This document shows, piece by piece, positions 26,557-45,180 of a DNA stretch of 55,413 nucleotides (position 1 is the stretch's first letter; every line of letters starts with the position of its first letter). This DNA comes from Minisyncoccales bacterium (GTDB taxonomy: Bacteria; Patescibacteriota; Minisyncoccia; Minisyncoccales; UBA5738), in the NCBI GenBank assembly GCA_049641805.1, contig JBARNX010000033.1:1-55413 (forward strand). Direction: 5' to 3'. Under the pieces are notes generated by a model. It did no database searches, was not told the DNA's origin, and saw only the letters and a program-made list of their open reading frames with translations. The translations under genes and the position numbers were made by a program.

Positions 26557-26557
26557 A

Positions 26558-26836
26558 TTATTTGCCGGATTGAAGGCTTTTAATCATATCGGCGGCGGTT
26601 TCAAACGGACCAAAAATATTTTTTCCAGCCTTGATGTCGGCGGATGCCTTGTCAAGCATTTTTCGGGTTCTTTTGTTGGGTATCGGATGATCGGTGAATG
26701 ATATTTCCCGCGTGGCAACAAATCTTTTAATATGCTGATTTATGACTGCGTTTAAAGACACGCCCAAATCTTGGGCGGTTTTGCGCGCCCGGTCTTTGAG
26801 TTTTTTATCAATTTTGATGCTCAGCATTGTTTCCAT
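26558..26836 (-). CDS. DinJ/RelB-family antitoxin
   Basis: IKIDKKLKDRARKTAQDLGVSLNAVINQHIKRF, a ribbon-helix-helix type. It lies 1 nt from the toxin gene. Confidence 0.65.
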   Translation of the reverse strand: METMLSIKIDKKLKDRARKTAQDLGVSLNAVINQHIKRFVATREISFTDHPIPNKRTRKMLDKASADIKAGKNIFGPFETAADMIKSLQSGK

Positions 26837-27016: not shown

Positions 27017-27147
27017 ATTTGAAAAATGTCAAAATCCAAATTTCCAATGTCAAAAAAATTCAAAATGCGGAAAGACAAGTGCGGGTTTACGATAACATAA
27101 AATCGGGGATTTGCCAATTTGTTAGTTTTTGGATAGGATAATGACAT

Positions 27148-27432: not shown

Positions 27433-27616
27433 GAAACTCGAAATATTTGAGGTTCCTTGGGTGCAAATATGCGGAATGAGAAATAGAATGATCCATGAGT
27501 ATTTCAGTGTCGATTTAAACATAGTTTGAGACACTGCGAACAAAAATCTGCCAAGCTTAAGGAAACAAGTCGTTATGATTTTTAAAACGCTCGATAAGCA
27601 GAAAAAACTTTTATGA
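27425..27616 (+). pseudogene. HepT/DUF86 toxin remnant
   Basis: Only the C-terminal part remains: VPWVQICGMRNRMIHEYFSVDLNIV, then TGA at 27527 where the family has Trp, then DTANKNLPSLRKQV in the same frame. Confidence 0.6.
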
Positions 27617-28755
27617 ATCCGAAAATGTATGTAAAGGGGGTGGGGATGACGCGGTTTGACTACGCGCAGAAGCCTTGGTGGGGGTTTGCCTATGACGCGG
27701 CAATCGATGCGTTGAAGGACGCCAAGATGAATATGGCCGGGATTGACGCGATCGCGTTTTCCGCGGTTTCCAGCGCCGCGGGCGGGGAGCATCAGACGCA
27801 CAAGGTTTCTTTGTTGTCGGGATTGTTTAAAACCAATGTGCCGATCATCGAACTGCCGTCGGTTTGCGGCGGCGGCGGAGCGGCGTTCTGGACGGCGCTG
27901 CGTTTGTTGCGCGATGAGGAGTTTAAAAATATTTTGGTGCTGACCGGAGAAAAGCTGGTGGACAACCGCGCCGAAGTAATCACGGACTGGATATTGTCCG
28001 CCGCCGAGCGAGCGATTGAGCAAACCGAAGGGTTGTTGTTTCCGGCGCAAAACGCGCTGGTTTACCAGCAATACTGCAAAAAATACGGCGGTTCGCACGA
28101 AGATTTGGAGCTGATCGCGTTCAAGAATCACCAGAACGCGGTGGCCAACCCCAAAGCCTATTATTACAAGCGGCCGGTGACGATGGAAAAGATCAAAGAT
28201 TCGCCGGTGGTGGCCGATCCGCTGCGGCTGATGGATTGCTCGCTGTCGGTCAACGGCGGCGCGGCGGCGATCGTTTCCAAAGACGAAACCGATATTGAAA
28301 TCATCGGTTCGGGATTTGCCACCGATTACATTCTGACTTTTGAGCGCGATGATATGACCCATTTCCGCGCCACGCAACTGGCGGCAAAAAAAGCGTTCGC
28401 GACGGCAGATTTAACGCCCGGCGACATTGATGTTGCCGAAATCCACGACGCGTTCACTTCCGTGGAGCTGTTGTCATATGAAGACATCGGTTTTGCCGCG
28501 CCGGGCAAAGGGGGAGAGCTGATCCGCTCGGGCAAGATCAATATGGGCGGCCAAATGCCCATCAATCCGTCAGGAGGCTTGAAAGCCAAGGGCCATCCGA
28601 TCTCGGCCACAGGCCTGGCGCAGATCTATGAGATCACCAACCAGCTGCGCGGCAATTGCGCTGAACGCCAAGTTAAAAACGCCAAAATCGGTCTGACCCA
28701 TAACATCGGCGGCGCCGGCGGCTCGGTTACCGTCCACATCTTGAAAAAGAATTAA
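27613..28755 (+). CDS. Thiolase, SCP-x/archaeal acetoacetyl-CoA thiolase type
   Basis: PSVCGGGGAAF (Cys nucleophile), EIHDAFTSVELLSYEDIGF, INPSGGLKAKGHPISATG, NIGGAG. Confidence 0.8.
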   Translation: MNPKMYVKGVGMTRFDYAQKPWWGFAYDAAIDALKDAKMNMAGIDAIAFSAVSSAAGGEHQTHKVSLLSGLFKTNVPIIELPSVCGGGGAAFWTALRLLRDEEFKNILVLTGEKLVDNRAEVITDWILSAAERAIEQTEGLLFPAQNALVYQQYCKKYGGSHEDLELIAFKNHQNAVANPKAYYYKRPVTMEKIKDSPVVADPLRLMDCSLSVNGGAAAIVSKDETDIEIIGSGFATDYILTFERDDMTHFRATQLAAKKAFATADLTPGDIDVAEIHDAFTSVELLSYEDIGFAAPGKGGELIRSGKINMGGQMPINPSGGLKAKGHPISATGLAQIYEITNQLRGNCAERQVKNAKIGLTHNIGGAGGSVTVHILKKN

Positions 28756-28846
28756 CCCACATCTCCGTAGGGGCGATTCCGTGTAATCGCCCGAGTGCGA
28801 ATTTTGTTTTTTGAATTTGGCGATTTTTTGATACGAAGTCAGCTTC

Positions 28847-28874
28847 TTGACACTATATAACTATTGTATATACT
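28847..28874 (+). promoter_or_regulatory. Sigma70-like promoter with an operator-like inverted repeat
   Basis: TTGACA, 16 nt, TATACT. The tataac/gttata arms overlap it. Confidence 0.4.
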
Positions 28875-28904
28875 ATGGTTATATATGTTAAGCTGCCTGA
28901 AATT

Positions 28905-29180
28905 ATGAAAACTTTGATCAATATAAAAACTGACCGCGATGTGAAAATCAGCGCGCAAAAACTGGCCAAGGAATTGGGATTGTCTTTGAGCGCGGTGGTT
29001 AACGCTTATTTGAAGCAATTTATTCGCACGAAGGCGGTTAATTTTTCGGTTACGCCGCAGATGTCGCCGGAATTAGAAAAACTTTTGGGAAAAATCGATT
29101 ATGATATTGCCCGGGGCAAGAATCTGTCGCCGGCAATGAGTTCCGGGAAAGATATTGATAAATATTTTGAATCTTTGTAA
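28905..29180 (+). CDS. DinJ/RelB-family antitoxin (paralog)
   Basis: MKTLINIKTDRDVKISAQKLAKELGLSLSAVVNAYLKQF. Confidence 0.65.
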   Translation: MKTLINIKTDRDVKISAQKLAKELGLSLSAVVNAYLKQFIRTKAVNFSVTPQMSPELEKLLGKIDYDIARGKNLSPAMSSGKDIDKYFESL

Positions 29181-29185
29181 TTTCC

Positions 29186-29446
29186 ATGGAAATAATATTT
29201 CATCGGAATTTTGAAAAACAAATTTTAAAATTGAAACCGGCGGAAAGAGAAAGATTGAGATTGCGCTTGAAGGTGTTTTTAAACGATCCGTTTGATCGGC
29301 AATTGAACAATCATCCGTTGAAAGGCGATCGGGCCGATTTTCACAGTATCAATATCGGCGGCGATTTGCGCGCGGTATTCAAGCAGATTGATACTGATAA
29401 ATGTATTTTTACCGAGATCGGTACCCACGGCGCATTGTATTCGTAA
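29186..29446 (+). CDS. RelE/YafQ-family toxin (paralog)
   Basis: HRNFEKQILK...NNHPLKGDRADFHSINIGGDLRAVF...GTHGALY. Confidence 0.7.
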   Translation: MEIIFHRNFEKQILKLKPAERERLRLRLKVFLNDPFDRQLNNHPLKGDRADFHSINIGGDLRAVFKQIDTDKCIFTEIGTHGALYS

Positions 29447-29480
29447 AGTGTCCATATGTCCAACATTTGGACACTTTACG
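29442..29480. terminator. 13-bp hairpin cgtaaagtgtcca/tggacactttacg
   Basis: Overlaps the toxin stop codon. Shares its core with 12374-12404. Confidence 0.45.
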
Positions 29481-29526
29481 CATTGATCGGCGCATTTGAA
29501 CAAAAAAACAACCAATTTGTCGGGGC

Positions 29527-30066
29527 CTAACCCCTGCTCCGCCCGCTGGCTTCGCAGGGGTTAGTCCCTTGTCTGGATGTAGTGATAAAATATTTTTTCA
29601 GGGCTAATCTGAAGATGGTTTTGTTTTTTAGGTTGGCTTCGATGAGGCAGATGCCTTTGTTGGGGAAGCCGTAGACGATTAGGGTTTTGGGTTTTGATTC
29701 CAGAACCGCGGGGATGACCAAAAGGTCTTCTTCGCCTTCGACGCAGACATTGATTTTTTCTTTAATCGCGTTTTTGACCGCGAGCCAGGCATTTTTTTGA
29801 ATGGTGCCGGCGGGATTATCAACTATTGTGGCGCACTCATGTTTTTGGGCGAAAACTTTTCGCTGGACTTTTTTGTCGAAAATTTTAATATCGGATTGCA
29901 AATGGTGCGAGCAATAATCGCCCACGGTGATTACGGTCTTGTAATTATTTTTATCCAATATCCTTTGATAGCGGGCTTTGGTTTTTTCTTCGGTTCCGAA
30001 TATCGGTTTGCCCCAGATTTTTTGCATTTTTGCGCGCGATTTTTCCGGTAAAAAATAAGTTCTCAT
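29527..30066 (-). CDS. DUF359/UPF0218, archaeal-type GTP-dependent dephospho-CoA kinase family
   Basis: VGDYC..., IFDKKVQRK, VDNPAGTIQ, VEGEEDLLVIPAVL and VYGFPNKGI match family hallmarks. The last 13 codons run through GC hairpin 29527-29564. Confidence 0.7.
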   Translation of the reverse strand: MRTYFLPEKSRAKMQKIWGKPIFGTEEKTKARYQRILDKNNYKTVITVGDYCSHHLQSDIKIFDKKVQRKVFAQKHECATIVDNPAGTIQKNAWLAVKNAIKEKINVCVEGEEDLLVIPAVLESKPKTLIVYGFPNKGICLIEANLKNKTIFRLALKKYFITTSRQGTNPCEASGRSRG

Positions 30067-30084
30067 TTGCAAAAATTTAAAGTT

Positions 30085-30186
30085 GGAAAATCAAAATGGA
30101 AAATGACAGTTTAAAATGTTAAAGTATCCGAAAGCAAACATTTTTAATGTTACATTGTCATTTTTATTTTTGATATTTACATTTTA
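30085..30186 (+). repeat. AT-rich palindromic intergenic element (copy f)
   Basis: Arms ggaaaatcaaaatggaaaatgaca / tgtcatttttatttttgatatttacatttt. Centre aaaatgttaaagtatccgaaagcaaacattttt. Confidence 0.7.
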
Positions 30187-30242
30187 AATTAAAAGTAGGA
30201 GAATAGAGGTCTATAATTGAACATACTAACGATAAAATATTT

Positions 30243-31271
30243 ATGGCTTTTTATCAATGCTTACAATGCAAGCGGCGGTGGGAATATCCTTTGGCGGAAT
30301 GCCCTTATTGTTTTGCGCCGCTGGAAAAAATGGAAAGCCGGAACGCGCGGGTGATCGGTTCGGTCAAAGTGGCGATTCCAACGCTTTTGCATCCCAATGT
30401 GCCGTATTATATCTTGCTTTTACGGGACGAAGCGGGGAACACATGGGGTTACAAATCGGAAATTGGATACCAAACCGGCGATGAATTGAAATTGGAGCCG
30501 GACGCAAATGCCGTGGCGATATGGCGCGTGAAATACGATATTCAAGAAGGAATCGAAAAAGTTTTGGAATTGGCCGGAGGCATCAATGTCGGCAAAGGTT
30601 CAAAAATCGTGGTTCTGCCCACATTGGCCAAGCCAAGCCACGGCTATTTCCGCGACAACACATCGCCGGAATTTTTGAGCGCGGTTTTACAAATCATTTT
30701 AAAACGGGGCGTGGAGGCCAAAGATATTACTGTCGCCGGGCAAAGTTTTGACGATTTGCCGGTGGTTGCGGTTGCGCAAAAGTCCGGACTTATCGATGCC
30801 GGGATGAAATTCGGCGTGCAGGCGCTTGATTTGGCGATGGGCGAATTCGAGCGGACGGGTAATTTCGAGATTTCAAAAACAATAATGGGCGCCGACCTAG
30901 TGATCAATATGGCGATGGAAAAGATCGGTGCGGCGAGCGCGACCGATAATCTGTTCCGGGTTTTGAAAAAAGAAAATTATCTGGGGCAGAAGTATCTATT
31001 ATCGGACGCGGAAATTGCCGCGGCTCTGGAACCGATCCTGGATAAAATGATCGTGATCGGCGAAGCGGAAAATGTCCAGCGGTCAAACAAACTGACCACT
31101 TTTATGGGATTGGTTTTGGCTGCCAAATCCGGTCGAAATCTGGACCGGGTTTTCAACGAGGCGGCTCAGTCGTTTAAAATGCCGGAAACAATAAAAGATA
31201 TTTCCGCCGCCGGCATACCGGTGGCGGGGAGAAGCGTGAAGGAGGTGCAATATCAAGCGGAAATTTTTTAA
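30243..31271 (+). CDS. DUF35 (zinc-ribbon plus OB-fold) fused to a DUF362-like domain
   Basis: N-terminus CLQCKRRWEYPLAECPYC plus an OB segment. C-terminus IVVLPTLAKPSHGYFRDNTSPEFLSAVLQIILKRG... Confidence 0.6.
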   Translation: MAFYQCLQCKRRWEYPLAECPYCFAPLEKMESRNARVIGSVKVAIPTLLHPNVPYYILLLRDEAGNTWGYKSEIGYQTGDELKLEPDANAVAIWRVKYDIQEGIEKVLELAGGINVGKGSKIVVLPTLAKPSHGYFRDNTSPEFLSAVLQIILKRGVEAKDITVAGQSFDDLPVVAVAQKSGLIDAGMKFGVQALDLAMGEFERTGNFEISKTIMGADLVINMAMEKIGAASATDNLFRVLKKENYLGQKYLLSDAEIAAALEPILDKMIVIGEAENVQRSNKLTTFMGLVLAAKSGRNLDRVFNEAAQSFKMPETIKDISAAGIPVAGRSVKEVQYQAEIF

Positions 31272-31272
31272 G

Positions 31273-31420
31273 TTTAAAATTGAAAAATCAAAATTAAAAA
31301 TGACAATGCAAAATTGAAAATGTTGGAATACCGGCATTTTACATTTTTTCCGCCAAAGGACGGATGCGTCTACGGCGCAAATTGTAATTTTAATTTTTGA
31401 TATTTTAATTTTTAATTAAA
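31273..31420 (+). repeat. AT-rich palindromic intergenic element (copy g)
   Basis: Fills the whole stop-to-ATG spacer. Carries the GC double mini-hairpin 31349-31379. Confidence 0.75.
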
Positions 31421-31423
31421 GCT

Positions 31424-32176
31424 ATGGCAAACATATTTGACGGGAAAGTTGTTTTGATTACCGGTTCGTCGCAGGGAATCGGGCGCGCGGTCGCGTTGAA
31501 ATTCGCCTCATTGGGCGCGAAAATCGCGTTCAACGATATCGCGATGCAGGAGGAAAATTTAAAAGTGGCGGTTGAGGAAGCCAAAAAAGCGGGCGCCCCG
31601 GACGCGAAATATTTTATGGCCGATGTTTCCAAATACGACGATGTGGAAAAAATGATGGCCGCGATTCAAACCGAATTCGGCCGCTTGGATGTTCTGGTGA
31701 ACAATGCCGGGATCGCCAAGGATCGCACTTTGGCGAAAATGACCGTTGAAGAATGGCAACGCGTGATCGACATCAATTTAACCAGCGTCTTTAATTGTTC
31801 AAAGACCGCGTTGCCGATGCTGATTGCCAATCAGGGCAATATCGTGAGTATGTCGTCTTTCTCGGGATTGCGGGGCAATTTTGGGCAAACCAATTATACC
31901 GCGGCCAAAGCCGGTATCATTGGATTTACCAAGACGCTTTCGAAAGAAGTCGGTAAATTCGGCGTGCGCGTCAACGCGGTGGCGCCGGGGTTTATCGAGT
32001 CGAAAATGACCGAGGCTATGCCCGAAGATATCAAGGCGATGGTGAAAAAATTGACTTCATTGGCGCGGACCGGCAAACCCGAAGAAGTGGCCAATGTAAT
32101 CGCGTTTCTGTCTTCGAGCGAAGCGAGTTTTGTGACTGGAGACATTGTCAATATCGACGGCGGTTTGTGGCTGTGA
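31424..32176 (+). CDS. 3-oxoacyl reductase, FabG-like SDR
   Basis: TGSSQGIGRA, NNAG, YTAAKAG. Confidence 0.8.
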   Translation: MANIFDGKVVLITGSSQGIGRAVALKFASLGAKIAFNDIAMQEENLKVAVEEAKKAGAPDAKYFMADVSKYDDVEKMMAAIQTEFGRLDVLVNNAGIAKDRTLAKMTVEEWQRVIDINLTSVFNCSKTALPMLIANQGNIVSMSSFSGLRGNFGQTNYTAAKAGIIGFTKTLSKEVGKFGVRVNAVAPGFIESKMTEAMPEDIKAMVKKLTSLARTGKPEEVANVIAFLSSSEASFVTGDIVNIDGGLWL

Positions 32177-32229
32177 TTTCCGTTCAATTCAAAATTAAGG
32201 CGGGTCGGACATGAGAATAACCAAAAAAT

Positions 32230-33444
32230 ATGGATAATATTTTAGACGATATTCTTAAAAACATCAGCGAACGGGCGCCGCATACGCCATTCTCGGTCGA
32301 GTTTTGGGATGAAACAAAGAAACAATATGGGCGGGGGACGGAAAAATTCAAGATTATCTTTCGTTGCGAAAGTGCGTTAAAGAAGTTTTTGTCGGCCGGT
32401 ACATTGGGTTTCGGCGAGGAATATATGGCCGGCAATATCGAGGTTGCCGGAGATATGCAAGCGATGCTGGGGCTGTACGATCATTGGCGTGATCTTAACC
32501 GGAATATCTCGCCGGGGGTAAAGTTCCGGGTGCTGGCAAACGCGATTTTGACGCGCGCGACAGTCCGCAATTCAAAAAAGAATATCAGGCATCATTACGA
32601 TATCGGCAATGATTTTTATTCTTTATGGCTTGATTCGGCGATGGCTTACTCCTGTGCGTATTTTAAAAACGGTTCCGACAGCTTGGAAATTGCGCAAGCG
32701 AACAAATATGACCATATCTGCAAGAAACTTCGCTTGCGAGCTGGAGAGAAACTGCTGGATATCGGTTGCGGTTGGGGAGGGATGATGTTTCACGCCGCAA
32801 AAAATTATGGCGCCGATTGTACCGGCTGTACACTGTCGGAAACTCAATATCGATATGTTAACGAAAAAATCGAAAAAGAAGGTTTGGGCGGCAAGATTAA
32901 AATTTTTTTAAAAGACTATCGCCGGGTGGAGGGGGTTTTCGATAAATCGGTTTCCGTCGGAATGTTCGAGCATGTGGGGAAAAATTATTATTCGGAATTT
33001 TTTTCAATGGTTAAAAGAACGCTTAAACCTTCGGGTATCGGCGTTTTGCACACCATCGGTTCCCGATCCGGGGGAGCGACAGATCCATTTATCGCCAAAT
33101 ACATTTTTCCGGGCGGGTTTGTTCCGACGCTGGCAATGGTCGCCGACGCGATGAATAAAGCCGAGTTGGTTTTTTATGATGTCGAAGACTTGCGGATGCA
33201 TTATGCCAAAACGCTTGATCTTTGGATCGCTAATTTTGAAGCGGCCGGCGCCGAGGTGAAGAATGTTTTGGCCCGAGAAATAAAAGATCGGACTCGGGCC
33301 GAGGAATTCATCCGGATGTGGCGGCTTTATTTGAATGGCAGCGCGGTTGCGTTCAAAAATGCCGGCAATCGATTGTATCAGATAACTTTTACCAATGGAG
33401 TCAACAATAATTTGCCGCTGACTCGGGATTATCTGTATTCATAA
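32230..33444 (+). CDS. Cyclopropane-fatty-acyl-phospholipid synthase family methyltransferase
   Basis: HYDIGNDFY and LLDIGCGWGGM SAM motif. Length is as expected for the CMAS family. Confidence 0.8.
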   Translation: MDNILDDILKNISERAPHTPFSVEFWDETKKQYGRGTEKFKIIFRCESALKKFLSAGTLGFGEEYMAGNIEVAGDMQAMLGLYDHWRDLNRNISPGVKFRVLANAILTRATVRNSKKNIRHHYDIGNDFYSLWLDSAMAYSCAYFKNGSDSLEIAQANKYDHICKKLRLRAGEKLLDIGCGWGGMMFHAAKNYGADCTGCTLSETQYRYVNEKIEKEGLGGKIKIFLKDYRRVEGVFDKSVSVGMFEHVGKNYYSEFFSMVKRTLKPSGIGVLHTIGSRSGGATDPFIAKYIFPGGFVPTLAMVADAMNKAELVFYDVEDLRMHYAKTLDLWIANFEAAGAEVKNVLAREIKDRTRAEEFIRMWRLYLNGSAVAFKNAGNRLYQITFTNGVNNNLPLTRDYLYS

Positions 33445-33475
33445 TTGACCGTTTTGGCGCACTAAGTGCTATAAT
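33445..33475 (+). promoter_or_regulatory. Extended -10 promoter candidate
   Basis: TTGACC, 19 nt, TGcTATAAT. A roughly 100-nt leader lies before 33581. Confidence 0.4.
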
Positions 33476-33580
33476 ATTAAGTGGCGGCGAAGATTGCTTT
33501 ACCGGCACTTTTATGGTACAAATCAAATTCAGTAAATTCTGCGCCTGTTTTGGCCGGGCGGGGCGGATTCGATAAAAAAT

Positions 33581-35107
33581 ATGCTATACACAAAAGAACA
33601 GATCAAGCAAATAATTCCTTACGACGATCCTTTTCTGTGGGTGGATGAAATTGAGAAAATAGAAGGGGATGTTATCGTCGGTTATAAACAAACTTTATCG
33701 CTGGATCCTTATTTTAAGGGTCATTTCGTTGATTTTCCGATTATGCCGGGAGTTTTGGTGGTTGAAGGTGTCGCCCAGACCGGTACGCTTTTGTTGCGGA
33801 CAAAATTGGGCGACAGCCACAAACAAAAGCACTTGCTGGCTTATCAGGTCCGGGGAGCGATGTTTTATTCGCCGATACTTCCCGGCGACCGGATAAAATA
33901 CCGGGTCCAGCTCTTGGGGGTTTATAATTCAAAGATCGCTAATTTTGTCGGCGAGGCGTATGTGGGCGGCGTTCTTAAATGCGAGGTCAGATTTTCCGTG
34001 GCGGTTATGGATAAAGAAGAAATGAAGCGGAATTTTGTTCGCCGCGACGCGGTTCAGCCGGTTTCGGCGATGAATTTAGCGCAAAAGACCGGTGCGAAAC
34101 TTTATGAGCTGCCGCCGTTAAAAATCGCGCATTGGACGGCTAAATATCCGATCATTCAGGGCGGAATGGCGGTGCGGGTGTCGTTGCACAATTTGGCGGG
34201 GAATGTGGCCAAAGAGGGCGGTGTGGGGCTTGTGGCCGCTTCCGGGATGAGAGATCCCGAAGAATTGAAAAGCGAAATCAGCCAGGCGCGGAAAATTGCC
34301 GGCGCCGGCGGAGTGATCGGCATAAATATTATGGGGGTGGTCGGCCGTTTCCAGCAATTGGTCCAGGCCGCGATCGAGGAAAAAGTTGATTTAATCGTTC
34401 AAGGCGCGGGTTTCCGAAAAGATATTTTTGAAATGGCGCGCGACAGCAACACCCCGATATTTTCCCTGGCTTCTTCGGCCAAAGTCGCGCAGAAAGCGCA
34501 GGATGCGGGTGCGGCGGCAATCATTGTCGTGGGCGCGGACGCGGCCGGACACCTTGGATTTCCGCACGGAATTCCTTTCCGTAAAACAATTGATATTTTA
34601 AAAGAAGTCGTGGCTACGGGCATCAAGGTCCCGTTGATTGCGGCGGGCGGGATTTTCACCGGTGCCGATATCGTGGAAATGATGCGCGCGGGCGCGGTGG
34701 GAGTGCAGTTGGGAACACGCTTCGTTTCCACCGAAGAATGCGATGCCAACATCAAATTCAAAGAAGCGCATATTAACGCCAAAAAGGAAGACAGTATCAT
34801 CGTCCATTCGCCGGTTGGTTTGCCGGGCCGCGCGATCCGTACGGAGTTTTCGGACAAGGTTGAGATTGGAACCGCGCCCAAGCCTGATCCCGCCGAATGC
34901 CAGGGTTGTATCGGGCCGGTTTGTGACAAGAGTTATTGTATTTTGAAAGCGCTGGAGAACGCGCGCAAAGGCGATGTCGAGAACGGTATTGTTTTTGCCG
35001 GGTCAAATGTTTGGCGCGTGAAAGAAATTACCACAGTCAAAAAATTAATCAAAGAACTGGTCGAAGAAGCCAACGCGATTCTGGCGAAAGAGCCATTGAT
35101 TATTTAA
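33581..35107 (+). CDS. FabZ-like hotdog dehydratase fused to an NMO/FabK-type enoyl reductase
   Basis: N-terminus PFLWVDEI...GHFVDFPIMPGVLVVEGVAQ. C-terminus KYPIIQGGMAVRVS...GADAAGHLGF. Confidence 0.75.
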   Translation: MLYTKEQIKQIIPYDDPFLWVDEIEKIEGDVIVGYKQTLSLDPYFKGHFVDFPIMPGVLVVEGVAQTGTLLLRTKLGDSHKQKHLLAYQVRGAMFYSPILPGDRIKYRVQLLGVYNSKIANFVGEAYVGGVLKCEVRFSVAVMDKEEMKRNFVRRDAVQPVSAMNLAQKTGAKLYELPPLKIAHWTAKYPIIQGGMAVRVSLHNLAGNVAKEGGVGLVAASGMRDPEELKSEISQARKIAGAGGVIGINIMGVVGRFQQLVQAAIEEKVDLIVQGAGFRKDIFEMARDSNTPIFSLASSAKVAQKAQDAGAAAIIVVGADAAGHLGFPHGIPFRKTIDILKEVVATGIKVPLIAAGGIFTGADIVEMMRAGAVGVQLGTRFVSTEECDANIKFKEAHINAKKEDSIIVHSPVGLPGRAIRTEFSDKVEIGTAPKPDPAECQGCIGPVCDKSYCILKALENARKGDVENGIVFAGSNVWRVKEITTVKKLIKELVEEANAILAKEPLII

Positions 35108-35250
35108 AATTAAAAAATCAAAATGAAAAATGACAATGCAAAATCGCAAAATTTGCAAAACGCGACATTTTAACATTTTTTCCGCCAAAGGACGGATGCG
35201 CCTACGGCGCAAATTGTCATTTTGATTTTTGATATTTACATTTTTAATTT
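35108..35250 (+). repeat. AT-rich palindromic intergenic element (copy h)
   Basis: Same arms as copies g and i. GC double mini-hairpin at 35181-35211. Confidence 0.75.
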
Positions 35251-35255
35251 GGAAT

Positions 35256-36197
35256 ATGTTTGAAAATAATAAACTTGCAAAACTTTTGAATATCAAGTAT
35301 CCGATCATCCAAGGCGGCATGGCGGGCGTTTCGGAATCGGTTCTGGCTTCCGCGGTTTCCAATGCCGGGGGATTGGGCGTGATCGGATCGGGATTTGCGT
35401 CGGCCGCTTGGCTGGATGAAGAAATTAAAAAAACCAAGCTGTTGACCGGCAAGCCGTTTGGAGTGAACCTTTTGTTGCAAAACCCGAATGTTTCCGAACT
35501 GGTCAAGGCGGTTATTGCCAATAAAGTTCCGGTGGTGTTTACCGGCGGCGGCAACCCGGTGCCGTTGATGCCGTTTTTGAAACAGGCGGATGTTAAAATT
35601 ATCCCCGTGGTGCCTTACGCGCGTTTGGCGGTGAAAATGGAGCAGGCGGGCGCAGACGCGGTAGTGGTGGAGGGGCTTGAATCCGGCGGACATATCGGAG
35701 AAAGCACGACAATGTGCTTGGTGCCGCAGGCTGTCGGAATGGTTAAAAATATTCCGGTGATCGCTGCCGGCGGAATTTGCGACGGACGGACAATGGCCGC
35801 GGCAATGGTTTTGGGCGCCGATGGCGTACAGATTGGTACCCGATTCCTGGCGGCCGTTGAATGCCAGGTGAGCGAAAGCTACAAGAAGGCGGTGATTAAT
35901 GCCGCCGATGAGAATATTGTGGTGGTGGCGCGTTTTACCGGCCATCCGGTGCGGATGATCAATAACAAATTCGTTGAATCGGTGCGCAAGATCGAGGAAA
36001 AAAATCCGTTTCCCGAAGAAATAAAATCCGAACGGTTTGCCGGCAACAAAGGCGGCGCGAACGCCGATTTGTCGCCGCTATTGTGCGGCACTTGCGCGGG
36101 AGGGATCAAAGAAATTAGAACTTGCCGGGAGATTATCGACGAAATTATTGCCGATGCCCTGAAAATCCTTTCGTCGGCTCCGGGTATGGCAAAATAG
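35256..36197 (+). CDS. NMO/FabK-type enoyl reductase (stand-alone paralog)
   Basis: KYPIIQGGMAGVS, VVVEGLESGGHIGE. Confidence 0.75.
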   Translation: MFENNKLAKLLNIKYPIIQGGMAGVSESVLASAVSNAGGLGVIGSGFASAAWLDEEIKKTKLLTGKPFGVNLLLQNPNVSELVKAVIANKVPVVFTGGGNPVPLMPFLKQADVKIIPVVPYARLAVKMEQAGADAVVVEGLESGGHIGESTTMCLVPQAVGMVKNIPVIAAGGICDGRTMAAAMVLGADGVQIGTRFLAAVECQVSESYKKAVINAADENIVVVARFTGHPVRMINNKFVESVRKIEEKNPFPEEIKSERFAGNKGGANADLSPLLCGTCAGGIKEIRTCREIIDEIIADALKILSSAPGMAK

Positions 36198-36205
36198 AAT
36201 TAAAA

Positions 36206-36874
36206 ATGAAAAAAATTGTTTCAATGGCCGCGTGGCTTTTCCCCGGGCAATGCATCAAAAGGATGTTTGTCAAAGAAGTGGAGGGGAGGAGCAATTTTCC
36301 TAAAGGGAATTTTATCTACGCGGCCAATCATTTGAGCCATATTGATTGGCTGATTGACGGCGCGATCTTGACGCCGCGGCGATTCACTTTCATCGGCCAG
36401 ACGGATAAAATGATTGGGATCAAAGGATTTTTGCGAGACTTGATTTATTGGTGGGCCCAGGTGATTCCGGTTAACCGCAATGATCACGAATCAAAAAAGA
36501 GAGCCGCGATGGCCGCGCAAACAATGCTTAGAAGAGGTTATTGTCTGATAATTTATCCGGAAGGCGCGCGGTCGCGTGACGGCAAATTGCATGAATTCAA
36601 GCCGGGCGTGGGCCGGTTTCATCTGGAAAGCGGTGTTCCTGTTTTGCCGGTGGCGCATTTTGGCACTTATAAGTTAATGCCGCCGGGGGAGAAATTCAGG
36701 GCAAAAAAAATCGTAAAAATAAAAATCGGCAAACCTCTCAATTTTACCGAAGAAAGGAAGGCGGCAGAATTGCTGGACAAGAAATCGCAAGCCTATTACA
36801 GGCTTTGCGCTGATGTCGCTAAAAATGTTGAAGAAGCGGTGAGAGGGCTGTTGGAAGATCAAATTAATTTTTAA
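36206..36874 (+). CDS. PlsC-family lysophospholipid/glycerol-phosphate acyltransferase
   Basis: NHLSHIDW (HX4D) and IYPEGARSRDG. Confidence 0.75.
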   Translation: MKKIVSMAAWLFPGQCIKRMFVKEVEGRSNFPKGNFIYAANHLSHIDWLIDGAILTPRRFTFIGQTDKMIGIKGFLRDLIYWWAQVIPVNRNDHESKKRAAMAAQTMLRRGYCLIIYPEGARSRDGKLHEFKPGVGRFHLESGVPVLPVAHFGTYKLMPPGEKFRAKKIVKIKIGKPLNFTEERKAAELLDKKSQAYYRLCADVAKNVEEAVRGLLEDQINF

Positions 36875-36883
36875 ATTTTTCCG

Positions 36884-37549
36884 ATGAATACTTTCGTTTC
36901 AACTTTATCGCGAATGGTTTTGGGCGGCGCGGTTAGAAATTTGCTGATCAAAAATATCAAGGGCTGGGATAATATTCCCAAGGGAAATTTCATTCTAGCT
37001 TCCAATCATTTGAGCCATATGGACTGGTTTATGAGCGGTTATATTACTACGCCGCGCAGATTCACTTTCATCGCCCAAGTCGACCAGTACGCGGGTTTTA
37101 AAAAATTGTGGCGCAACATTATTTATTTTTACGGCGGGATAATTCCGATCGACCGCAAAAGCGATCAATCAAAAAAAGATGCGGTCGCGGCGGCGATAAA
37201 AATGCTTGGCCATGGATATTGCGTGGTGATCTATCCGGAAGGCGGAAGGGCGTATGACGGAGTAATGCGCAATTTCAAATCAGGCGTAGGTAAATTGCAT
37301 TTGGACAGCGGCGTACCGGTGTTGCCGGTTGCCATTAAGGGAACCCAAGAATTGATGCCGCCCCATGGCCGGTTGAAATTCAAAAAAGCGGCGCAAATAA
37401 ATATCGGCAAACCGCTGTCGTTCGGTCCAGAAATCGCGGCCGCGGGAAAAATGGACAAGGAGTCGTTTGAATACCGCAAACTTTGCGCCGGTGTTTCTAA
37501 ACGGATTGAAGATGAGGTGCGGAAATTGTTAAAAGAAAATGGAAATTAA
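36884..37549 (+). CDS. PlsC-family acyltransferase (tandem paralog)
   Basis: NHLSHMDW and IYPEGGRAYDG. Collinear with the preceding gene. Confidence 0.75.
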   Translation: MNTFVSTLSRMVLGGAVRNLLIKNIKGWDNIPKGNFILASNHLSHMDWFMSGYITTPRRFTFIAQVDQYAGFKKLWRNIIYFYGGIIPIDRKSDQSKKDAVAAAIKMLGHGYCVVIYPEGGRAYDGVMRNFKSGVGKLHLDSGVPVLPVAIKGTQELMPPHGRLKFKKAAQINIGKPLSFGPEIAAAGKMDKESFEYRKLCAGVSKRIEDEVRKLLKENGN

Positions 37550-39083
37550 AAAAATTCTTATTGCCAACCGGGGAGAAATCGCTTTGCGCATTTTGCGGAC
37601 ATGCCGCGAAATGGGCATTAAAACCGTGGTTTTGTGCCCGATGCCCGGTCAGGAAAAAAATTTCCTGGAAACATCATTGGCCGATGAATTTTATTATCTT
37701 GAAAAAGAAGGTTCGGCGGGGTACCTGGATAAAGAAAAGATAATTTCGATCGCCAAAAAGGCCAAAGTCGATGCCATTCACCCGGGTTATGGTTTTTTGT
37801 CGGAAAACTGGCAATTCGCTTTGATGTGCGATCGCAGCCGGATAAAATTCATCGGGCCGCATTTTAAGACCTTGCGGACTTTACAGGACAAAATCGAGGC
37901 CAAAAAAATCGCCAAAAAAATCGGCATTCCCACGGTTCCGGCCTCCGACCAATCGATAAAAAGCAAAAAAGATTTGATCAAATGGGCTGACCGCATCAAG
38001 CCGCCGTTTATTATCAAGGCCCAGCGGGGCGGTGGCGGGATGGGTATTCGCGTGGTTAACGGCCAGATGAATTATGAGGAAATGATGACGCTGTCGCTAG
38101 GGGTCCAGCGGCAGATCGCGGGCGCTTTCGACGATATTGATTTTTTTCTGGAAAAATATTTGCCCGAAGTCAAACATATCGAATTCCAAGTTCTGGGCGA
38201 CGGCCGCAAGGCGGTTCATTTGGGCGAGCGCGAGTGTTCGATCCAGCGCCGGTTCCAGAAAATGGTGGAAGAATCGCCTTCCGCGGCGATTGACGATCGT
38301 TTGCGCGCCGAAATGGGCGCTTGGGCGGTTAAGATCGCGCAATATTTGAGTTATCGCGGCGCGGCCACGATAGAGTTTTTGCTGGATAAAGACAAAAATT
38401 ATTATTTTATGGAAGTGAATCCGCGGATTCAGGTTGAGCATCCGGTTACCGAGGCGGTTACCGGAATCGATATCGTTGAGCAGCAGATCAGGATCGCCGA
38501 AGGCAAACAGCTGTCGTTCGGGCAAGAAAGCGTTTATCAGAGCGGATGGGCTATTGAGGTGCGCGTTAACGCCGAAGACCCGCAAAAAAATTTCATTCCT
38601 TCGCCGGGCGCGGTTTCAAAATACATCCCTCCGCAAGGCCAGGGGGTGTTTGTGCACAGTTTTTTGCAGGACGGCCAGGAGGTTTATCCCTATTTTGATT
38701 CGATGCTGGCAAAGGTGATCGCGTACGGCAAGGATCGGGATTCGGCAATTACCAAGTTGCGCCGCGCGCTTTCCGAAACCGTTATCGAGGGTGTTGCCAC
38801 TACGATTCCATTTTTCAAATTATTGTTGGAAAAAGATGATTTCATCAACGGTAATTTCTATACTAACTTCATTGAGAAAAGCGGCATTGTGCAAGAATTG
38901 ATGCTCAAGCCGTATTTACAGAAAAAAGTCGTTTGCGGGCGCAAGGAGATCGAAGAACAGGCGATTGCCGATATCGCGCGCGCGATATATCGGGAAATAA
39001 AAAACTTCAACGGATCTTTGAACGATGAGCCGGCGGTTTCAAAATGGGTTTTATCCGGGCGGATGTCAAACCCCGAAGAATAA
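37539..39083 (+). CDS. accC: Biotin carboxylase
   Basis: KILIANRGEIALRI, GYGFLSEN, ATP-grasp region, EVNPRIQVEHPVTE. Confidence 0.85.
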   Translation: MEIKKILIANRGEIALRILRTCREMGIKTVVLCPMPGQEKNFLETSLADEFYYLEKEGSAGYLDKEKIISIAKKAKVDAIHPGYGFLSENWQFALMCDRSRIKFIGPHFKTLRTLQDKIEAKKIAKKIGIPTVPASDQSIKSKKDLIKWADRIKPPFIIKAQRGGGGMGIRVVNGQMNYEEMMTLSLGVQRQIAGAFDDIDFFLEKYLPEVKHIEFQVLGDGRKAVHLGERECSIQRRFQKMVEESPSAAIDDRLRAEMGAWAVKIAQYLSYRGAATIEFLLDKDKNYYFMEVNPRIQVEHPVTEAVTGIDIVEQQIRIAEGKQLSFGQESVYQSGWAIEVRVNAEDPQKNFIPSPGAVSKYIPPQGQGVFVHSFLQDGQEVYPYFDSMLAKVIAYGKDRDSAITKLRRALSETVIEGVATTIPFFKLLLEKDDFINGNFYTNFIEKSGIVQELMLKPYLQKKVVCGRKEIEEQAIADIARAIYREIKNFNGSLNDEPAVSKWVLSGRMSNPEE

Positions 39084-39095
39084 GGACTAAAAACC

Positions 39096-39479
39096 ATGAA
39101 ATTCAAATTTAACAATCAAGGCAAAGATTATGATGTGGAAATCATTGACCAAGGCGAACAAGCCATGAAGGTTGTTGTTAACGGCAAAGAGTTTTCGTAC
39201 GGCTCGTTTGACGCGGTTCAGGCGGCGGCGGTACCGCAGGCAATCTTGCCCAAAAGAGACCTTTCGTCAAAAGAGGTCAAAGCGGTTTTGGCCGGGACGA
39301 TTTCGGAAATATCCGTTAATGCAGGCGATATCATAAAATCGGGACAAAAACTGCTTACGCTTTCGGCGATGAAAATGGAAAATGAAATTTTATCGGAAAC
39401 CGACGGCAAAATCAAGGAAATTAAAGTCGCCAAAGATCAAAAAGTCAAAGAAGGCGATATCCTTATTGTTCTGGCATAA
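39096..39479 (+). CDS. Biotin carboxyl carrier protein
   Basis: AMKMENEI biotinyl-lysine motif. Confidence 0.75.
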   Translation: MKFKFNNQGKDYDVEIIDQGEQAMKVVVNGKEFSYGSFDAVQAAAVPQAILPKRDLSSKEVKAVLAGTISEISVNAGDIIKSGQKLLTLSAMKMENEILSETDGKIKEIKVAKDQKVKEGDILIVLA

Positions 39480-39484
39480 TTTTT

Positions 39485-40015
39485 ATGGATTTAGATATTA
39501 AAAAATTCGATAATCTGGATTCTACCAACAGCAAGGCCAAGAAGCTGGCGAATGGGGGAAGCGGAGCTTGGACGGTCGTGGTCGCGAAAGAACAGAATGG
39601 CGGTTACGGGCGAAAAGGCAATGCCTGGTATTCGCCGGACGGCGGACTGTACTTTTCCGTGATTTTGCCCAAAAGCAATGTTGAGGATCTGCAAATTTTA
39701 ACGATCCTGGCGGCGTTTTCAGTGGCTCAAACCATCAAAGACCGATTCGGGGTGGAACCGTTCGTGAAACTGCCCAACGATGTGTATCTTAACGGCAAAA
39801 AGATTTGCGGAATTCTAACGGAAAATATTATATCAGGCGAAGTCAAATCGTCGGTGATCGGGATCGGCGTGAATACGAATATCGGGGCATTTCCAATGGA
39901 GCTGGCGAATGCGACTTCGCTTGAGATCGAACTGGGCAAGATGATTGACAACAGTCTAATTTTAGAGCAGAGTATAAGCCAGTTGCAAAAGATATTCAAG
40001 GCCATCGGCCAATAA
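39485..40015 (+). CDS. Biotin--protein ligase, catalytic core only
   Basis: GGYGRKGNAW and KLPNDVYLNGKKICGILTE. No HTH and no C-terminal domain (176 aa). Confidence 0.7.
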   Translation: MDLDIKKFDNLDSTNSKAKKLANGGSGAWTVVVAKEQNGGYGRKGNAWYSPDGGLYFSVILPKSNVEDLQILTILAAFSVAQTIKDRFGVEPFVKLPNDVYLNGKKICGILTENIISGEVKSSVIGIGVNTNIGAFPMELANATSLEIELGKMIDNSLILEQSISQLQKIFKAIGQ

Positions 40016-40167
40016 AATTTAAAGTTTAAAAATCAAAATGGAAAATGACAATTAAAAGTTAAAAATGGGAAAATTTTAAAATTATTTTATTTTAAATTTT
40101 AAATTGTCATTATCGGTTTATTAAAACTGCCTGCCAAACTGATTTTTGATATTTACATTTTTAATTA
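40016..40167 (+). repeat. AT-rich palindromic intergenic element (copy i)
   Basis: Carries the 28-nt GC module (inverted) at 40114-40141. Confidence 0.75.
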
Positions 40168-40173
40168 ACTACT

Positions 40174-41724
40174 ATGAATTTTGAAAAAGAAATCGAACAA
40201 TTAAATAAAAATTTGGAGGGTTTGGAAAATCCCGAATTGATCGAAAAACAGCACCAAAAAGGGAAGATGGCGGCGCGGGAAAGGATTGCCGCGCTGATTG
40301 ATCCGGAAACATTCGTGGAGTTTGATCCGTTCGCGGAAACAAGATTTTCCCGCTTTGGGTTGGATAAAAAGAGAGCCGCGGGCGATGCGGTGATCGCCGG
40401 TTTTGGCAAAATCAGCAACCGTCCGGTTTGCGTTTACAGCCAGGATTTTACCAAGGTGGGCGGCGGTTCGCTGGGCGAAATGCACGGCAAAAAGATTATT
40501 AAAGTAATTGATCGGGCGCGTAAAATCGGTTGTCCGATAATCGGCATCATTGATTCGGGCGGCGCGCGGATTCAGGAAGGTGTCGCCAGTCTGGACGGTT
40601 ACGCGGGGATATTTAACGCGATGGTTAAGGCTTCGGGGGTGGTGCCGCAAATCAGCGTTATTGTCGGGCCGTCGGCCGGCGGAGCGTGCTACGCGCCGGG
40701 ATTATCGGATTTTGTTTTTATGGTTGACGGCGTTTCGCAAATGTTTATCACCGGGCCGGAAGTGATTAAAAAGGTTACCGGCGAGGAGGTATCGTTTGAC
40801 GCGCTGGGGGGAGCCAACGCTCATTGTGCCAAAAGCGGTTGCGCCCAATTCCGCTGTGCCGGCGAGAAAGACTGTTTTGCCGGCGTTAAAAAACTTTTGG
40901 GTTATTTGCCACAGAACAATATGGATGACGCGCCGCGGTCAAAAAGCATTTTGGCGGAACTGTTCGAAAAAGAGGACAATGCCAAACTTTTAGACATTGT
41001 TCCCGAAGACAGCGGCAAGGGCTATGATATGAAGGCGGTGATTGAAGAGATTTTCGATAAAAATTCATTTTTTGAGATTCAACCGGAATTCGCGGTTAAC
41101 GCGGTCGTTGGTCTGGCCCGTTTGGGCGGTTATGTTACGGGCGTGGTGGCCAATCAGCCCAAAACGATGGCCGGAGTTTTGGATATTGATTCTTCGGACA
41201 AAATCGCGCGGTTTGTGCGTTTGTGCGACTCCTTTAATATCGCATTGGTTAATTTGGTTGATACTTCCGGATATCTTCCCGGCGCCAATCAGGAACATAA
41301 CGGGATCATCCGTCATGGCGCCAAGGTTTTGTACGCCTATGCCGAAGCCAGCGTGCCTAAGATCAGCGTGATTATCCGTAAGGCATTCGGCGGCGCGTAT
41401 ATCGCCATGGCCAGCCGCGCTTTGGGTTATGATTGCGTCCTTGCCTGGCCGGGGGCGCAGATCGCGGTGATGGGGCCGGAGCAGGCGGTGGGAATTATCT
41501 ATCGCCGCGAATTGGCGGAGCGCAATGACGCGCCCAAATTCGAACAGGAAAAAATCAACGAAATGAAACTGCTGGGCAGCGCTTTCGAAGCGGCAAAAAT
41601 GGGCCAGGTGGATATGGTAATCAATCCCAAAGATACCCGGACGATCCTGACCAAACTGCTGGAATCGCTATTGACCAAGCGCGAAGAAAAGATTTCCAGG
41701 AAGCACGGGAATACGCCACTGTAA
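40174..41724 (+). CDS. Acyl-CoA carboxylase carboxyltransferase (PccB/MmdA type)
   Basis: 516 aa. GGGSLGEMHGKKI, DSGGARIQEG, RKAFGGAYIAM. Confidence 0.85.
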   Translation: MNFEKEIEQLNKNLEGLENPELIEKQHQKGKMAARERIAALIDPETFVEFDPFAETRFSRFGLDKKRAAGDAVIAGFGKISNRPVCVYSQDFTKVGGGSLGEMHGKKIIKVIDRARKIGCPIIGIIDSGGARIQEGVASLDGYAGIFNAMVKASGVVPQISVIVGPSAGGACYAPGLSDFVFMVDGVSQMFITGPEVIKKVTGEEVSFDALGGANAHCAKSGCAQFRCAGEKDCFAGVKKLLGYLPQNNMDDAPRSKSILAELFEKEDNAKLLDIVPEDSGKGYDMKAVIEEIFDKNSFFEIQPEFAVNAVVGLARLGGYVTGVVANQPKTMAGVLDIDSSDKIARFVRLCDSFNIALVNLVDTSGYLPGANQEHNGIIRHGAKVLYAYAEASVPKISVIIRKAFGGAYIAMASRALGYDCVLAWPGAQIAVMGPEQAVGIIYRRELAERNDAPKFEQEKINEMKLLGSAFEAAKMGQVDMVINPKDTRTILTKLLESLLTKREEKISRKHGNTPL

Positions 41725-41762
41725 AAAATACTCGAAACCATAATATTAGAAACAAGCTGCAA

Positions 41763-42206
41763 ATGAATCATTCGTTAAATAAAATCAGCATACCAAAAAG
41801 AATAAAATTTATCGTATATTTTTCGTCATCCGTATCGGCGGTTTTATTGTTTGGTTTAATATTCATGCCACTCAATAATGGTGTTAGCTATTTTAGTGCT
41901 CTTATAAATAATTGGCCTTTCATTGCGGCGATGTTGTTTTATGTATTTATTGCTTACGAGTTGTCTAATGGCAAAAAAATTGGATGGTATTTTGGTTTAT
42001 TGTTCTTTCCAGCTATGATTTTGGTTCAATTGATACCACTCATAGAAATTATGGGACGGAAAAGTTATGAAACCATTTTCTTGCTGGGATTCCTCAATTT
42101 ATTTGGCGTGTTTTTCTTGGGAAATCTTTTATCAATGATATTTTTATTAAGAGATCGCAAGAATTATTTCGCGGCGGTGGAGAAGGCGAGGAATAAGACC
42201 GCTTGA
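41763..42206 (+). CDS. Small multi-pass membrane protein
   Basis: 4 predicted TM helices. Low-GC segment. Confidence 0.4.
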   Translation: MNHSLNKISIPKRIKFIVYFSSSVSAVLLFGLIFMPLNNGVSYFSALINNWPFIAAMLFYVFIAYELSNGKKIGWYFGLLFFPAMILVQLIPLIEIMGRKSYETIFLLGFLNLFGVFFLGNLLSMIFLLRDRKNYFAAVEKARNKTA

Positions 42207-42216
42207 CAATAAATTT

Positions 42217-42268
42217 ATTAGTAATACACTACTAATAAATGGCACTTAATTAGTAATACATTACTAAT
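42217..42268. promoter_or_regulatory. Two copies of a 20-bp palindrome (operator-like)
   Basis: attagtaatacactactaat (42217-42236) and attagtaatacattactaat (42249-42268). TTGACA at 42203. The ATG follows at 42272. Confidence 0.45.
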
Positions 42269-42271
42269 CGT

Positions 42272-43567: not shown

Positions 43568-43570
43568 AAA

Positions 43571-43903: not shown

Positions 43904-43917
43904 CGCGGGCGCAAGGT

Positions 43918-44053
43918 TGTTCTTTTCGTAACGGGACTCACGCAAATTTTAGAAATTTTGCGCGAAGCAATTTATTGTTATAAAAAGACCGGTTGTTTAT
44001 GGCGGGGAAGATCGCAAAATTTCTAAAATTTGCGAATCATTACGAAAAGAACA
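43918..44053. repeat. 136-bp nested inverted repeat
   Basis: Outer arms tgttcttttcgtaa/ttacgaaaagaaca. Inner arms cgcaaattttagaaattttgcg/cgcaaaatttctaaaatttgcg. Confidence 0.7.
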
Positions 44054-45179: not shown

Positions 45180-45180
45180 T

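Follow-up and report, generated by a model that had tools for sequence, protein, structure and literature searches.

AT-rich palindromes in the operon spacers of a Minisyncoccales bacterium: candidate ORF-less derivatives of a PF05635-encoding element of the Candidate Phyla Radiation

Intervening sequences with an open reading frame (ORF) for an S23p protein were already known from rRNA genes in the early 1990s, and neither the function of the protein nor the mode by which these sequences spread has been established (PMC4990558). The one from Coxiella burnetii is 428 nt long, resides in the 23S rRNA and carries an S23p ORF whose start is preceded by three GACAGAT heptamers, and its 28-bp terminal inverted-repeat stem is cut by RNase III (PMC4990558). 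In the Candidate Phyla Radiation (CPR), insertions in 16S and 23S rRNA genes contain ORFs of the 23S_rRNA_IVP family, and for insertions bearing LAGLIDADG it was described that those with and those without an ORF share highly similar non-ORF regions (PMC11270868). Here we analyze a family of AT-rich palindromic elements in a contig of 55,413 nt from a Minisyncoccales bacterium with a Nealsonbacteria-like CPR genome (JBARNX010000033.1, assembly GCA_049641805.1), the whole of which is referred to as the window. The elements occupy gene spacers in and around a lipid gene cluster, and with a probability of roughly 0.6 we take them to be ORF-less, non-autonomous derivatives of a small selfish element that is bounded by inverted repeats and widespread in the CPR. 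No rRNA gene is present in the window.

An earlier note on this DNA had described four copies of the element between positions 30085 and 40167. All four are present, with slightly wider limits, and three further copies are found near the end of the window, the last of them degenerate, which makes a total of seven copies of 120-150 nt. They are given below along with the modules X and Y that are nested in several of them and with two half-length relics.

30073-30191, plus strand: copy 1, between the divergent genes for DUF359 (minus) and DUF362 (plus); 5' arm, short centre and 3' arm; arm profile matches at 30074-30123 (+) and 30190-30141 (-); fold -25.5 kcal/mol, z -4.0
30096-30122: relic ORF of copy 1, ATG GAA AAT GAC AGT TTA AAA TGT TAA, a start plus 8 codons
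31270-31418, plus strand: copy 2, occupies the DUF362/FabG spacer; relic start changed to ATT; fold -41.3 kcal/mol, z -4.9
31348-31379, plus strand: module X in copy 2, TTCCGCCAAAGGACGGATGCGTCTACGGCGCA, GC-rich, 32 nt, with two small hairpins
35100-35250, plus strand: copy 3, occupies the FabA-FabK fusion/FabK spacer; fold -39.3 kcal/mol, z -5.0
35180-35211, plus strand: module X, nested in copy 3
40015-40167, plus strand: copy 4, occupies the biotin-ligase-like/carboxyltransferase spacer; fold -32.2 kcal/mol, z -4.2
40112-40143, minus strand: module Y in the 3' arm of copy 4, ATCAGTTTGGCrGGCAGTTTTAmTAAACyGAT
52778-52928, minus strand: copy 5, inverted with respect to the genes, occupies the spacer between the CarS-like gene and an unknown gene; X-like module at 52858-52890; fold -33.3 kcal/mol, z -4.4
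53583-53735, minus strand: copy 6, inverted, with module Y at 53610-53641 and its arm directly adjoining the downstream ATG at 53735; fold -31.4 kcal/mol, z -2.4
55187-55326, no strand assigned: copy 7, degenerate or mosaic; its 5' end is short, and it contains the centre motif, module Y (55198-55229) and, in reverse, an X-like module (55246-55278); fold -34.3 kcal/mol, z -3.0
25406-25436, plus strand: half-length relic of another variant, AATATCAAAATCCAAATTTCCAATGTCAAA; 84% identical to 27025-27069
27025-27055, plus strand: second half-length relic, a variant of 25406-25436, adjoining tRNA-Arg

Both types of end that had been distinguished in these copies were found, and they are imperfect inverted repeats of one another. 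Each of the seven copies is predicted to fold into one long hairpin (-25 to -41 kcal/mol, z -2.4 to -5.0), with inverted arms of 35-50 nt and folded stems of more than 22 bp. The centre reported as a shared part, AAAATGTTAAA followed by a GC loop and ACATTTT, is found in copies 1, 2, 5 and 6, whereas copies 3 and 4 have a different one. Copies 1-4 are oriented along the direction of the genes, copies 5 and 6 against it. The family had been likened to miniature inverted-repeat transposable elements (MITEs) for its small size, its terminal inverted repeats and its multiple copies in both orientations, and all of these traits are present. Copies 2-4 begin at or beside the stop codon of the upstream gene and end about 5-7 nt before the next ATG, filling the spacer entirely as had been observed before; in copy 3 the stop codon TAA (35105-35107) lies within the 5' arm. 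Copy 1 does not abut its ATG but ends 51 nt upstream of it, and its other side is 6 nt away from the start of the divergent gene. Among the shorter relatives proposed for the window, those at 25406-25450 and 27025-27069 hold and resemble another variant of the same kind of element in related genomes. The two at 12560-12619 and 47270-47310, although AT-rich and periodic, were missed by the arm profile. Short-period (6-8 nt) A-tract arrays near gene starts or tRNAs, for example with four tandem CAAAAT units, were seen at 26170-26295, 16960-17045, 12560-12619 and 47259-47310; they are negative with the arm profile and may either derive from other variants by decay or be a spacer feature unrelated to the elements. 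No Rfam family matched the elements, neither at gathering score in the window nor at E up to 1 in the region 30000-40300.

As this sequence is both AT-rich and periodic, a mere chance likeness of low-complexity spacers had to be considered, and it is true that exact matches to the motif in non-CPR genomes and viral contigs are chance matches without extended arms. In the window, the core AAAATCAAAATNNAAAATGACAAT was found 11 times with up to three mismatches, against 0.04 matches expected from dinucleotide shuffles, and AATGACAAT was found 13 times against 0.9 expected. In more than 100 genomes the sequence is conserved over 50 nt and ends at a sharp boundary, and the arm profile gave E-values down to 1e-9 to 1e-11. 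We regard a chance origin as practically negligible; the shuffle counts, the arm logo and the arm profile rule out the possibility raised in the earlier note that there is only AT bias, with neither conserved termini nor copies that can be aligned beyond chance.

A coding partner of the elements is found in other genomes. Inspection of arms without a nearby partner revealed one protein family that recurred between distant arm pairs, and in three of the loci fetched for comparison (numbered here with the prefix L) the same two arms enclose an ORF of 123-125 aa, in an element of about 450 bp (L014, 1913-2359; L091, 602-1053; L160, 9978-10424). The encoded protein matches PF05635, the protein of 23S rRNA intervening sequences (E 3e-18), and TIGR02436, a four helix bundle protein (E 2e-23); its sole match among solved structures is 2RLD, and its isoelectric point is 9.4-9.7. 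The arm profile, which was built from short copies, matches the L160 element at E 4e-11 and 9e-6, and both ends of the window copies can be aligned to those of the elements in all three loci. The ORF starts with the ATG of AAAATGNAAAATGACAAT inside the arm, where the conserved sequence reads M-(E/Q/K)-N-D-(N/S)-(V/A)-K-F-K-N, and three to four AAAATNN heptamers precede the ATG and run on into the first codons. By alignment, end type 1 corresponds to the 5' end of the coding element, with a leader of about 25 nt and the first ten or so (~10) codons, and end type 2 to its 3' end, immediately past the stop codon. Both ends, but not the body of the ORF, are matched in the window copies, where at most a relic start and up to 8 codons are left. 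The sequences thus show that the copies share the ends of the coding element and have lost its ORF internally. Because full-length relatives with the same ends encode the PF05635 protein and the window copies have no ORF, we consider the latter as derivatives rather than as full members of the intervening-sequence type. A longer coding partner with the same ends is a further trait of MITEs, and it is present here in all three loci.

The protein itself belongs to a very large group, with no fewer than 3370 clusters of PF05635-type proteins found at E up to 1e-10. Among these, the 120 best are 78-89% identical, are found mostly on contigs below 3 kb, and have sources named as Terry-, Doudna-, Yanofsky-, Moran-, Beckwith- and Wolfebacteria. 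In L160 another sequence variant also flanks a PF05635 gene (14828-15070), and one protein of this locus matches both PF05635 and PF22296, bAvd.

The distribution of the element covers the CPR. A scan with ATCAAAATNNAAAATGACAAT over one genome per species returned at least 117 loci, and the whole extended palindrome is present at about 110 among those listed, with labels that include Saccharibacteria, the Parcubacteria group, Microgenomates, Doudna-, Kerfeld-, Falkow- and Magasanikbacteria and others. About 7 of the listed matches are to non-CPR genomes; they show no extension and arose by chance. A search of 2.9 million viral contigs gave only three exact matches, all likewise by chance and without arms, and carriage by phages was rejected on these grounds. 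The logo derived from 113 arms reads W AAT KY AAAAT KY AAAWATC AAAATGN AAAATGAC AAT KY AAAAT NN AAAAWT with a sharp outer boundary, and the repeat unit of the arm is 7 nt in length, with five conserved and two free positions (AAAATNN). Pairing of arms in the fetched loci yielded 88 elements with a modal length of 100-130 nt. Note that the second codon is TAA in 23% of the arms, where coding is lost and the consensus is kept. At the free positions, arm identity is 0.69 within the window and 0.67 between genomes, and a recent burst or a genome-specific homogenisation was therefore rejected.

The arms are under constraint at the level of nucleotides, as their identity exceeds that of third codon positions in both the ORF and the flanking genes. 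Between full-length copies dN/dS is 0.03-0.09 and synonymous sites are saturated, third positions in the body of the ORF being 48-57% identical, whereas identity rises to 84-88% in the 25-nt leader and to 80-87% in the 3' arm. Near the window, comparison of filled orthologous sites gives 88-92% for 5' arms and 73-79% for 3' arms, against 46-76% for third positions of the flanking genes. Constrained ends combined with saturated synonymous sites in the ORF are the pattern expected of cis sites that are recognised by a trans factor.

For orthologous comparison 35 loci of the FabA-FabK fusion gene were used, and they revealed the insertion polymorphism for which the earlier note had called. Copy 4 is missing from L122, where flanks of 91-94% identity surround the empty spacer TAAaattttaattaattacaATG, and in the reverse case L122 has a small copy in the plsC/plsC spacer that measures only 9 nt in the window. 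The site of copy 1 is filled in L122 and L141 and empty in L126 and L149, the spacer of copy 3 is empty (6-31 nt) in L138, L149, L144, L133 and L140, and copies 1-3 are absent in some relatives. Elements have thus been gained or lost at orthologous sites in operon spacers. The earlier note had also considered that orthologous spacers might carry the same sequence as an ancient, non-mobile leader, and this is borne out in part: many other relatives are filled at the copy-3 spacer, often however by a different 7-8-nt periodic AT palindrome, and in L123, L135, L136 and L153 by the variant of the relics at 25406 and 27025. The short-read contigs L002 and L004, which carry the DUF362 gene, break off inside the 5' arm of copy 2, as is expected for a repeat. 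A different inverted-repeat element of about 110 nt, with the ends CCTTGAATTAC and GTAATTCAAGG, was noticed in L122 (3560-3670), just downstream of copy 1 (window ~30218), and is absent from the window.

Sites that are filled in one genome and empty in another fit a classical MITE, in which an insertion sequence with an internal deletion is mobilised in trans by a transposase (DDE-type or of another known kind) that is encoded elsewhere in the genome, and so do the sharp ends, the size, the terminal inverted repeats, the copy number and the two orientations. A target-site duplication, however, did not emerge: when all offsets within 10 nt were considered, permuted left/right pairings gave direct repeats of 3-8 nt at least as often. 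The longer partner that shares these ends measures only about 450 bp, and its single ORF of 123 aa encodes the four-helix bundle, for which no catalytic activity is known, and no recognisable transposase. Among the ORFs beside 52 solo arms no transposase is recurrent and the four-helix-bundle family alone recurs, and the window copies are flanked by housekeeping genes. We hold such an origin to be quite improbable.

The modules X and Y, which were located by blastn-short, vary independently among close relatives. At the site of copy 3 the window contains X, L122 contains Y, and L129, L130 and L134 contain neither; module X of copy 2 is likewise absent from otherwise identical elements in these three loci. 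Module Y is found at the same position of the arm in copies 4, 6 and 7 and in copies 1 and 3 of L122. We infer that X and Y are separate passengers that insert into arms or centre. In X-like modules elsewhere (L022, L049, L092, L106), inspection by eye indicated paired changes that preserve the two small hairpins. About 215 nt comprising copy 3 together with the final 65 nt of upstream coding sequence (window 34970-35255, L129 6810-7003) are identical in both genomes apart from module X, which is found in the window only, although the surrounding DNA is only about 77% identical, and the same holds for L130 and L134. This points to a recombination patch centred on the element.

The placement of the elements with respect to genes is tight. 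Both flanks could be classified for 52 elements, 49 of which lie between co-directional, 2 between divergent and 1 between convergent genes. Of 65 downstream ATGs, 53 lie within 6 nt of the element boundary, most often at 5 nt, and of 64 upstream stop codons, 48 end between -8 and +5 nt from the opposite boundary, frequently as a TAA contributed by the arm. The full-length P0119 element is placed likewise, between lepB and hisS. The same full-length element was seen to follow lepB throughout L161-L170, with secDF in place of hisS downstream in L168, either through a rearrangement or through an assembly join at the repeat.

Such distances to stop and start codons in many genomes might indicate a host-level expression element that is kept for the operon, be it an intercistronic processing or stability hairpin, a device for stop-start coupling in re-initiation without Shine-Dalgarno motifs, or a bidirectional promoter or attenuator. 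This would be in line with arms that exceed synonymous-site conservation even in ORF-less orthologous copies, with the occupation of the same spacers in divergent relatives and with the missing burst. Window genes have almost no Shine-Dalgarno motifs, their upstream regions being plainly A/T-rich, which suggests that initiation in this organism is independent of such motifs and also means that an AT-rich arm abutting the ATG is not obviously harmful. A consensus scan of the elements moreover retrieved promoter-like matches, at only 9 of 12 positions (TTGTCA-N17-TACATT, in the 3' arms), and weak terminator-like hairpins in module X, where GC hairpins are followed by T-rich arms. Nevertheless, spacers of just 6-31 nt in several relatives with the same gene order mark the element as dispensable, and the sequence of the arm is accounted for by its homology to the ends of the coding element.

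The earlier note had further suggested a built-in expression function such as a promoter or terminator, and a directional one is not favoured by our data. The orientation of elements relative to genes is 22:20, and arms on the side of gene starts have the same composition, position by position, as arms on the side of gene ends. Sense and antisense strands fold equally well (-26.7 and -27.6 kcal/mol, Wilcoxon p = 0.41), with 82 and 95 G·U pairs, respectively, while canonical TTGACA-N17-TATAAT promoters and terminators formed by a GC hairpin plus T are in use elsewhere in the window. With random orientation, like arms and no bias of G·U pairs to the sense strand, a one-sided promoter or terminator is not supported. 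A promoter as the main function, with TTGTCA-N17-TACATT or the phased TTTNCA-N17-TRMATT and a leaderless start at the modal spacing of 5 nt, was rejected for the same reasons and because the second position of the -10-like hexamer is an A in only about half of the arms. Selection at the level of RNA was rejected as well, as neither folding energies nor G·U counts show an asymmetry between sense and antisense. A symmetric hairpin function stays compatible with the strand and orientation tests, and by analogy to the excision of rRNA intervening sequences by RNase III, a role of the hairpin as a processing site is plausible. Taken together we consider a host-level function that maintains these elements to be unlikely.

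The explanation that we favour, an ORF-less derivative of a selfish element, would work as follows. The copies would reside in the spacers of transcribed operons, and in the transcript the two arms would pair to a 30-45 bp AU-rich stem, with the upstream stop and the downstream start located at its base. As in rRNA intervening sequences, this stem would probably be cut by RNase III or simply be looped out, and an insert treated in this way would be nearly harmless in a genome whose genes start without Shine-Dalgarno motifs. The heptamer arrays, in turn, are probably the cis sites through which the basic protein encoded by the element, or another trans factor, maintains or copies it. In L054, an element (3560-3759) is found directly upstream of the RNase III gene rnc, recognised by its signature NERLEFLGDAVLE, whose ATG lies about 4 nt past the arm.

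Several observations weigh against this explanation. The window contains no full-length copy, and none of the fetched loci has arms inside an rRNA gene; in L109, which includes a 23S gene, the element is 3 kb away. There is no target-site duplication, with two empty/filled pairs permitting at most an ambiguous TAA or TTAA, and the copies within the window, being no more alike than those of different genomes, do not point to a recent burst. Relatives of only about 75% nucleotide identity have these same spacers occupied, and ORF-less copies that stay in place near the consensus could reflect a host-level function or gene conversion instead. Cleavage of the stems by RNase III, though probable, is argued from analogy, and we know of no transposition mechanism for the PF05635 protein family.

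A more far-reaching idea, which we put forward tentatively, is that the PF05635/Avd-like protein is the trans factor of a mobile or self-maintaining element that does without a transposase. Its pentamer would recognise the AAAATNN arrays, as DNA or RNA, and promote copying, homing or retention, and the ORF-less copies in the lipid cluster would be its non-autonomous passengers. If true, this would provide a first function for a very large protein family and explain the spread of rRNA intervening sequences, and the pattern of constraint makes the question testable with one small protein and a 50-nt arm. In a weaker variant, CPR operons without Shine-Dalgarno motifs might have adopted the hairpin to keep stop and start codons close together in re-initiation.

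The genes that flank the copies form a fatty-acid and lipid set, with a DUF362 protein, FabG, a cyclopropane-fatty-acid-synthase-like protein, the FabA-FabK fusion and FabK, followed by two PlsC acyltransferases, AccC, AccB, the biotin ligase-like protein and the carboxyltransferase; beyond it lie a CarS-like, a kinase-like and a metallo-beta-lactamase-fold protein. Positions 27613-45828 hold a full cluster for fatty-acid synthesis and acyl transfer, including the fusion, whose gene order is kept in 35 related loci. A cluster of this kind is unusual for CPR-type genomes. For the carboxyltransferase, a protein of at least 90% identity is annotated in Candidatus Nealsonbacteria bacterium DGGOD1a, and assembly GCA_049302415.1 has a contig with the same lipid genes. 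The occurrence of imperfect palindromes, about 100-150 nt long, between co-directional ORFs is also reminiscent of the attC sites of a chromosomal integron, where each downstream gene would be a cassette. Here the flanking genes constitute a coherent fatty-acid pathway with an order conserved among relatives, and no integrase is found nearby. attC sites are defined by RYYYAAC / GTTRRRY cores, whereas the ends of the arms are AAAT...ATTT, and unlike attC sites the arms conserve their primary sequence across classes. An integron is thus exceedingly improbable. TIGR-Tas arrays were rejected, too. As known from CPR and phages, these consist of tandem dual-spacer units with box C/D motifs beside a Tas gene with a Nop domain (PMC12045711), and the copies in the window stand singly, scattered between housekeeping genes, and have no Tas-like gene in their neighbourhood.

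Other features of the window are listed as observations in their own right. Small toxin-antitoxin-like pairs with canonical TTGACA-N17-TATAAT promoters lie just upstream of the lipid cluster (26296-26836, 28875-29446; L001 3264-3548) and are of the RelB/YafQ type or, in relatives, consist of a nucleotidyltransferase and a HEPN fragment. A second, GC-richer repeat of about 100-130 nt occurs at 48660-48793 and 55317-55413, where it runs off the end of the window; its copies are about 84% identical, with a conserved stem-loop and no match in Rfam. At the very start of the window, 52-126 match group II intron domains V-VI in Rfam (60 bits).

In the favoured explanation, the same kind of element that is known as an intervening sequence from rRNA has colonised operon spacers across the CPR and left many ORF-less copies behind. 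We found nothing relevant in the literature on intergenic repeats or MITEs of the CPR, and no report of dispersed operon-spacer copies or ORF-less derivatives of such elements. In practical terms, the repeats break short-read assemblies of CPR genomes, and as they fill spacers up to the start codon they can mislead gene callers and the prediction of operons and promoters. They also mark sites of recombination between co-occurring lineages.

The rRNA intervening sequences of Coxiella, Leptospira and others resemble the full CPR element in that it is about 450 bp long with a single ORF of the same Pfam family, in its terminal inverted repeats that form a long stem, and in the tandem heptamers upstream of the ORF start, although the sequences of the units differ. 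Like it, they are regarded as selfish, with no known enzyme for mobility (PMC4990558). In contrast, the window copies and the fetched relatives are located between protein-coding genes and not in rRNA helices, most CPR copies have lost the ORF, the start of which lies within the stem, and the sequence of the arm is conserved over the whole superphylum. Excision by RNase III, described for Coxiella, is proposed here. The insertions described in CPR rRNA genes involve the same protein family in the same group of organisms, but that survey concerned rRNA genes only and described no operon-spacer copies, inverted repeats built from heptamers or ORF-less IVP derivatives (PMC11270868). With Avd, the accessory protein of diversity-generating retroelements, the small and basic CPR protein shares the four-helix-bundle fold family, but neither a reverse transcriptase nor a pair of template and variable repeats is found beside the CPR elements. 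The combination of modules X and Y with arms in varied orders and orientations recalls the modular mosaics of BIME/REP and pneumococcal BOX elements. REPs are short GC-rich palindromes tied to RAYT transposases, whereas the CPR elements involve neither a RAYT gene nor a REP-like unit.

In behaviour, the closest analogues are the Correia and ERIC elements. ERIC sequences, or IRUs, of enterobacteria are imperfect palindromes of about 127 bp in transcribed spacers that are kept across genera and have size variants through internal insertions at fixed points; to our knowledge they have neither a transposase nor a coding full-length form. They are unrelated in sequence and host group, and the elements described here differ in being AT-rich, periodic in heptamers and linked to a PF05635 gene. 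The Correia elements (NEMIS) of Neisseria are 100-155 bp in length, intergenic, with inverted ends, and are co-transcribed as hairpins that RNase III cleaves, with many copies in both orientations. They duplicate a TA target and possess defined outward promoters and an IHF site, and we know of no coding parent; in the CPR elements no target duplication was found and a coding partner exists. The window copies depart from classical MITEs in having neither a target duplication nor a transposase partner, and from rRNA intervening sequences in lying outside rRNA and having no ORF. With the former they share a short, non-coding format with terminal inverted repeats and multiple copies, ends in common with a coding partner and presence/absence polymorphism at orthologous sites, and with the latter the complementary termini that form a stem and, in the full form, the heptamers upstream of the ORF start.

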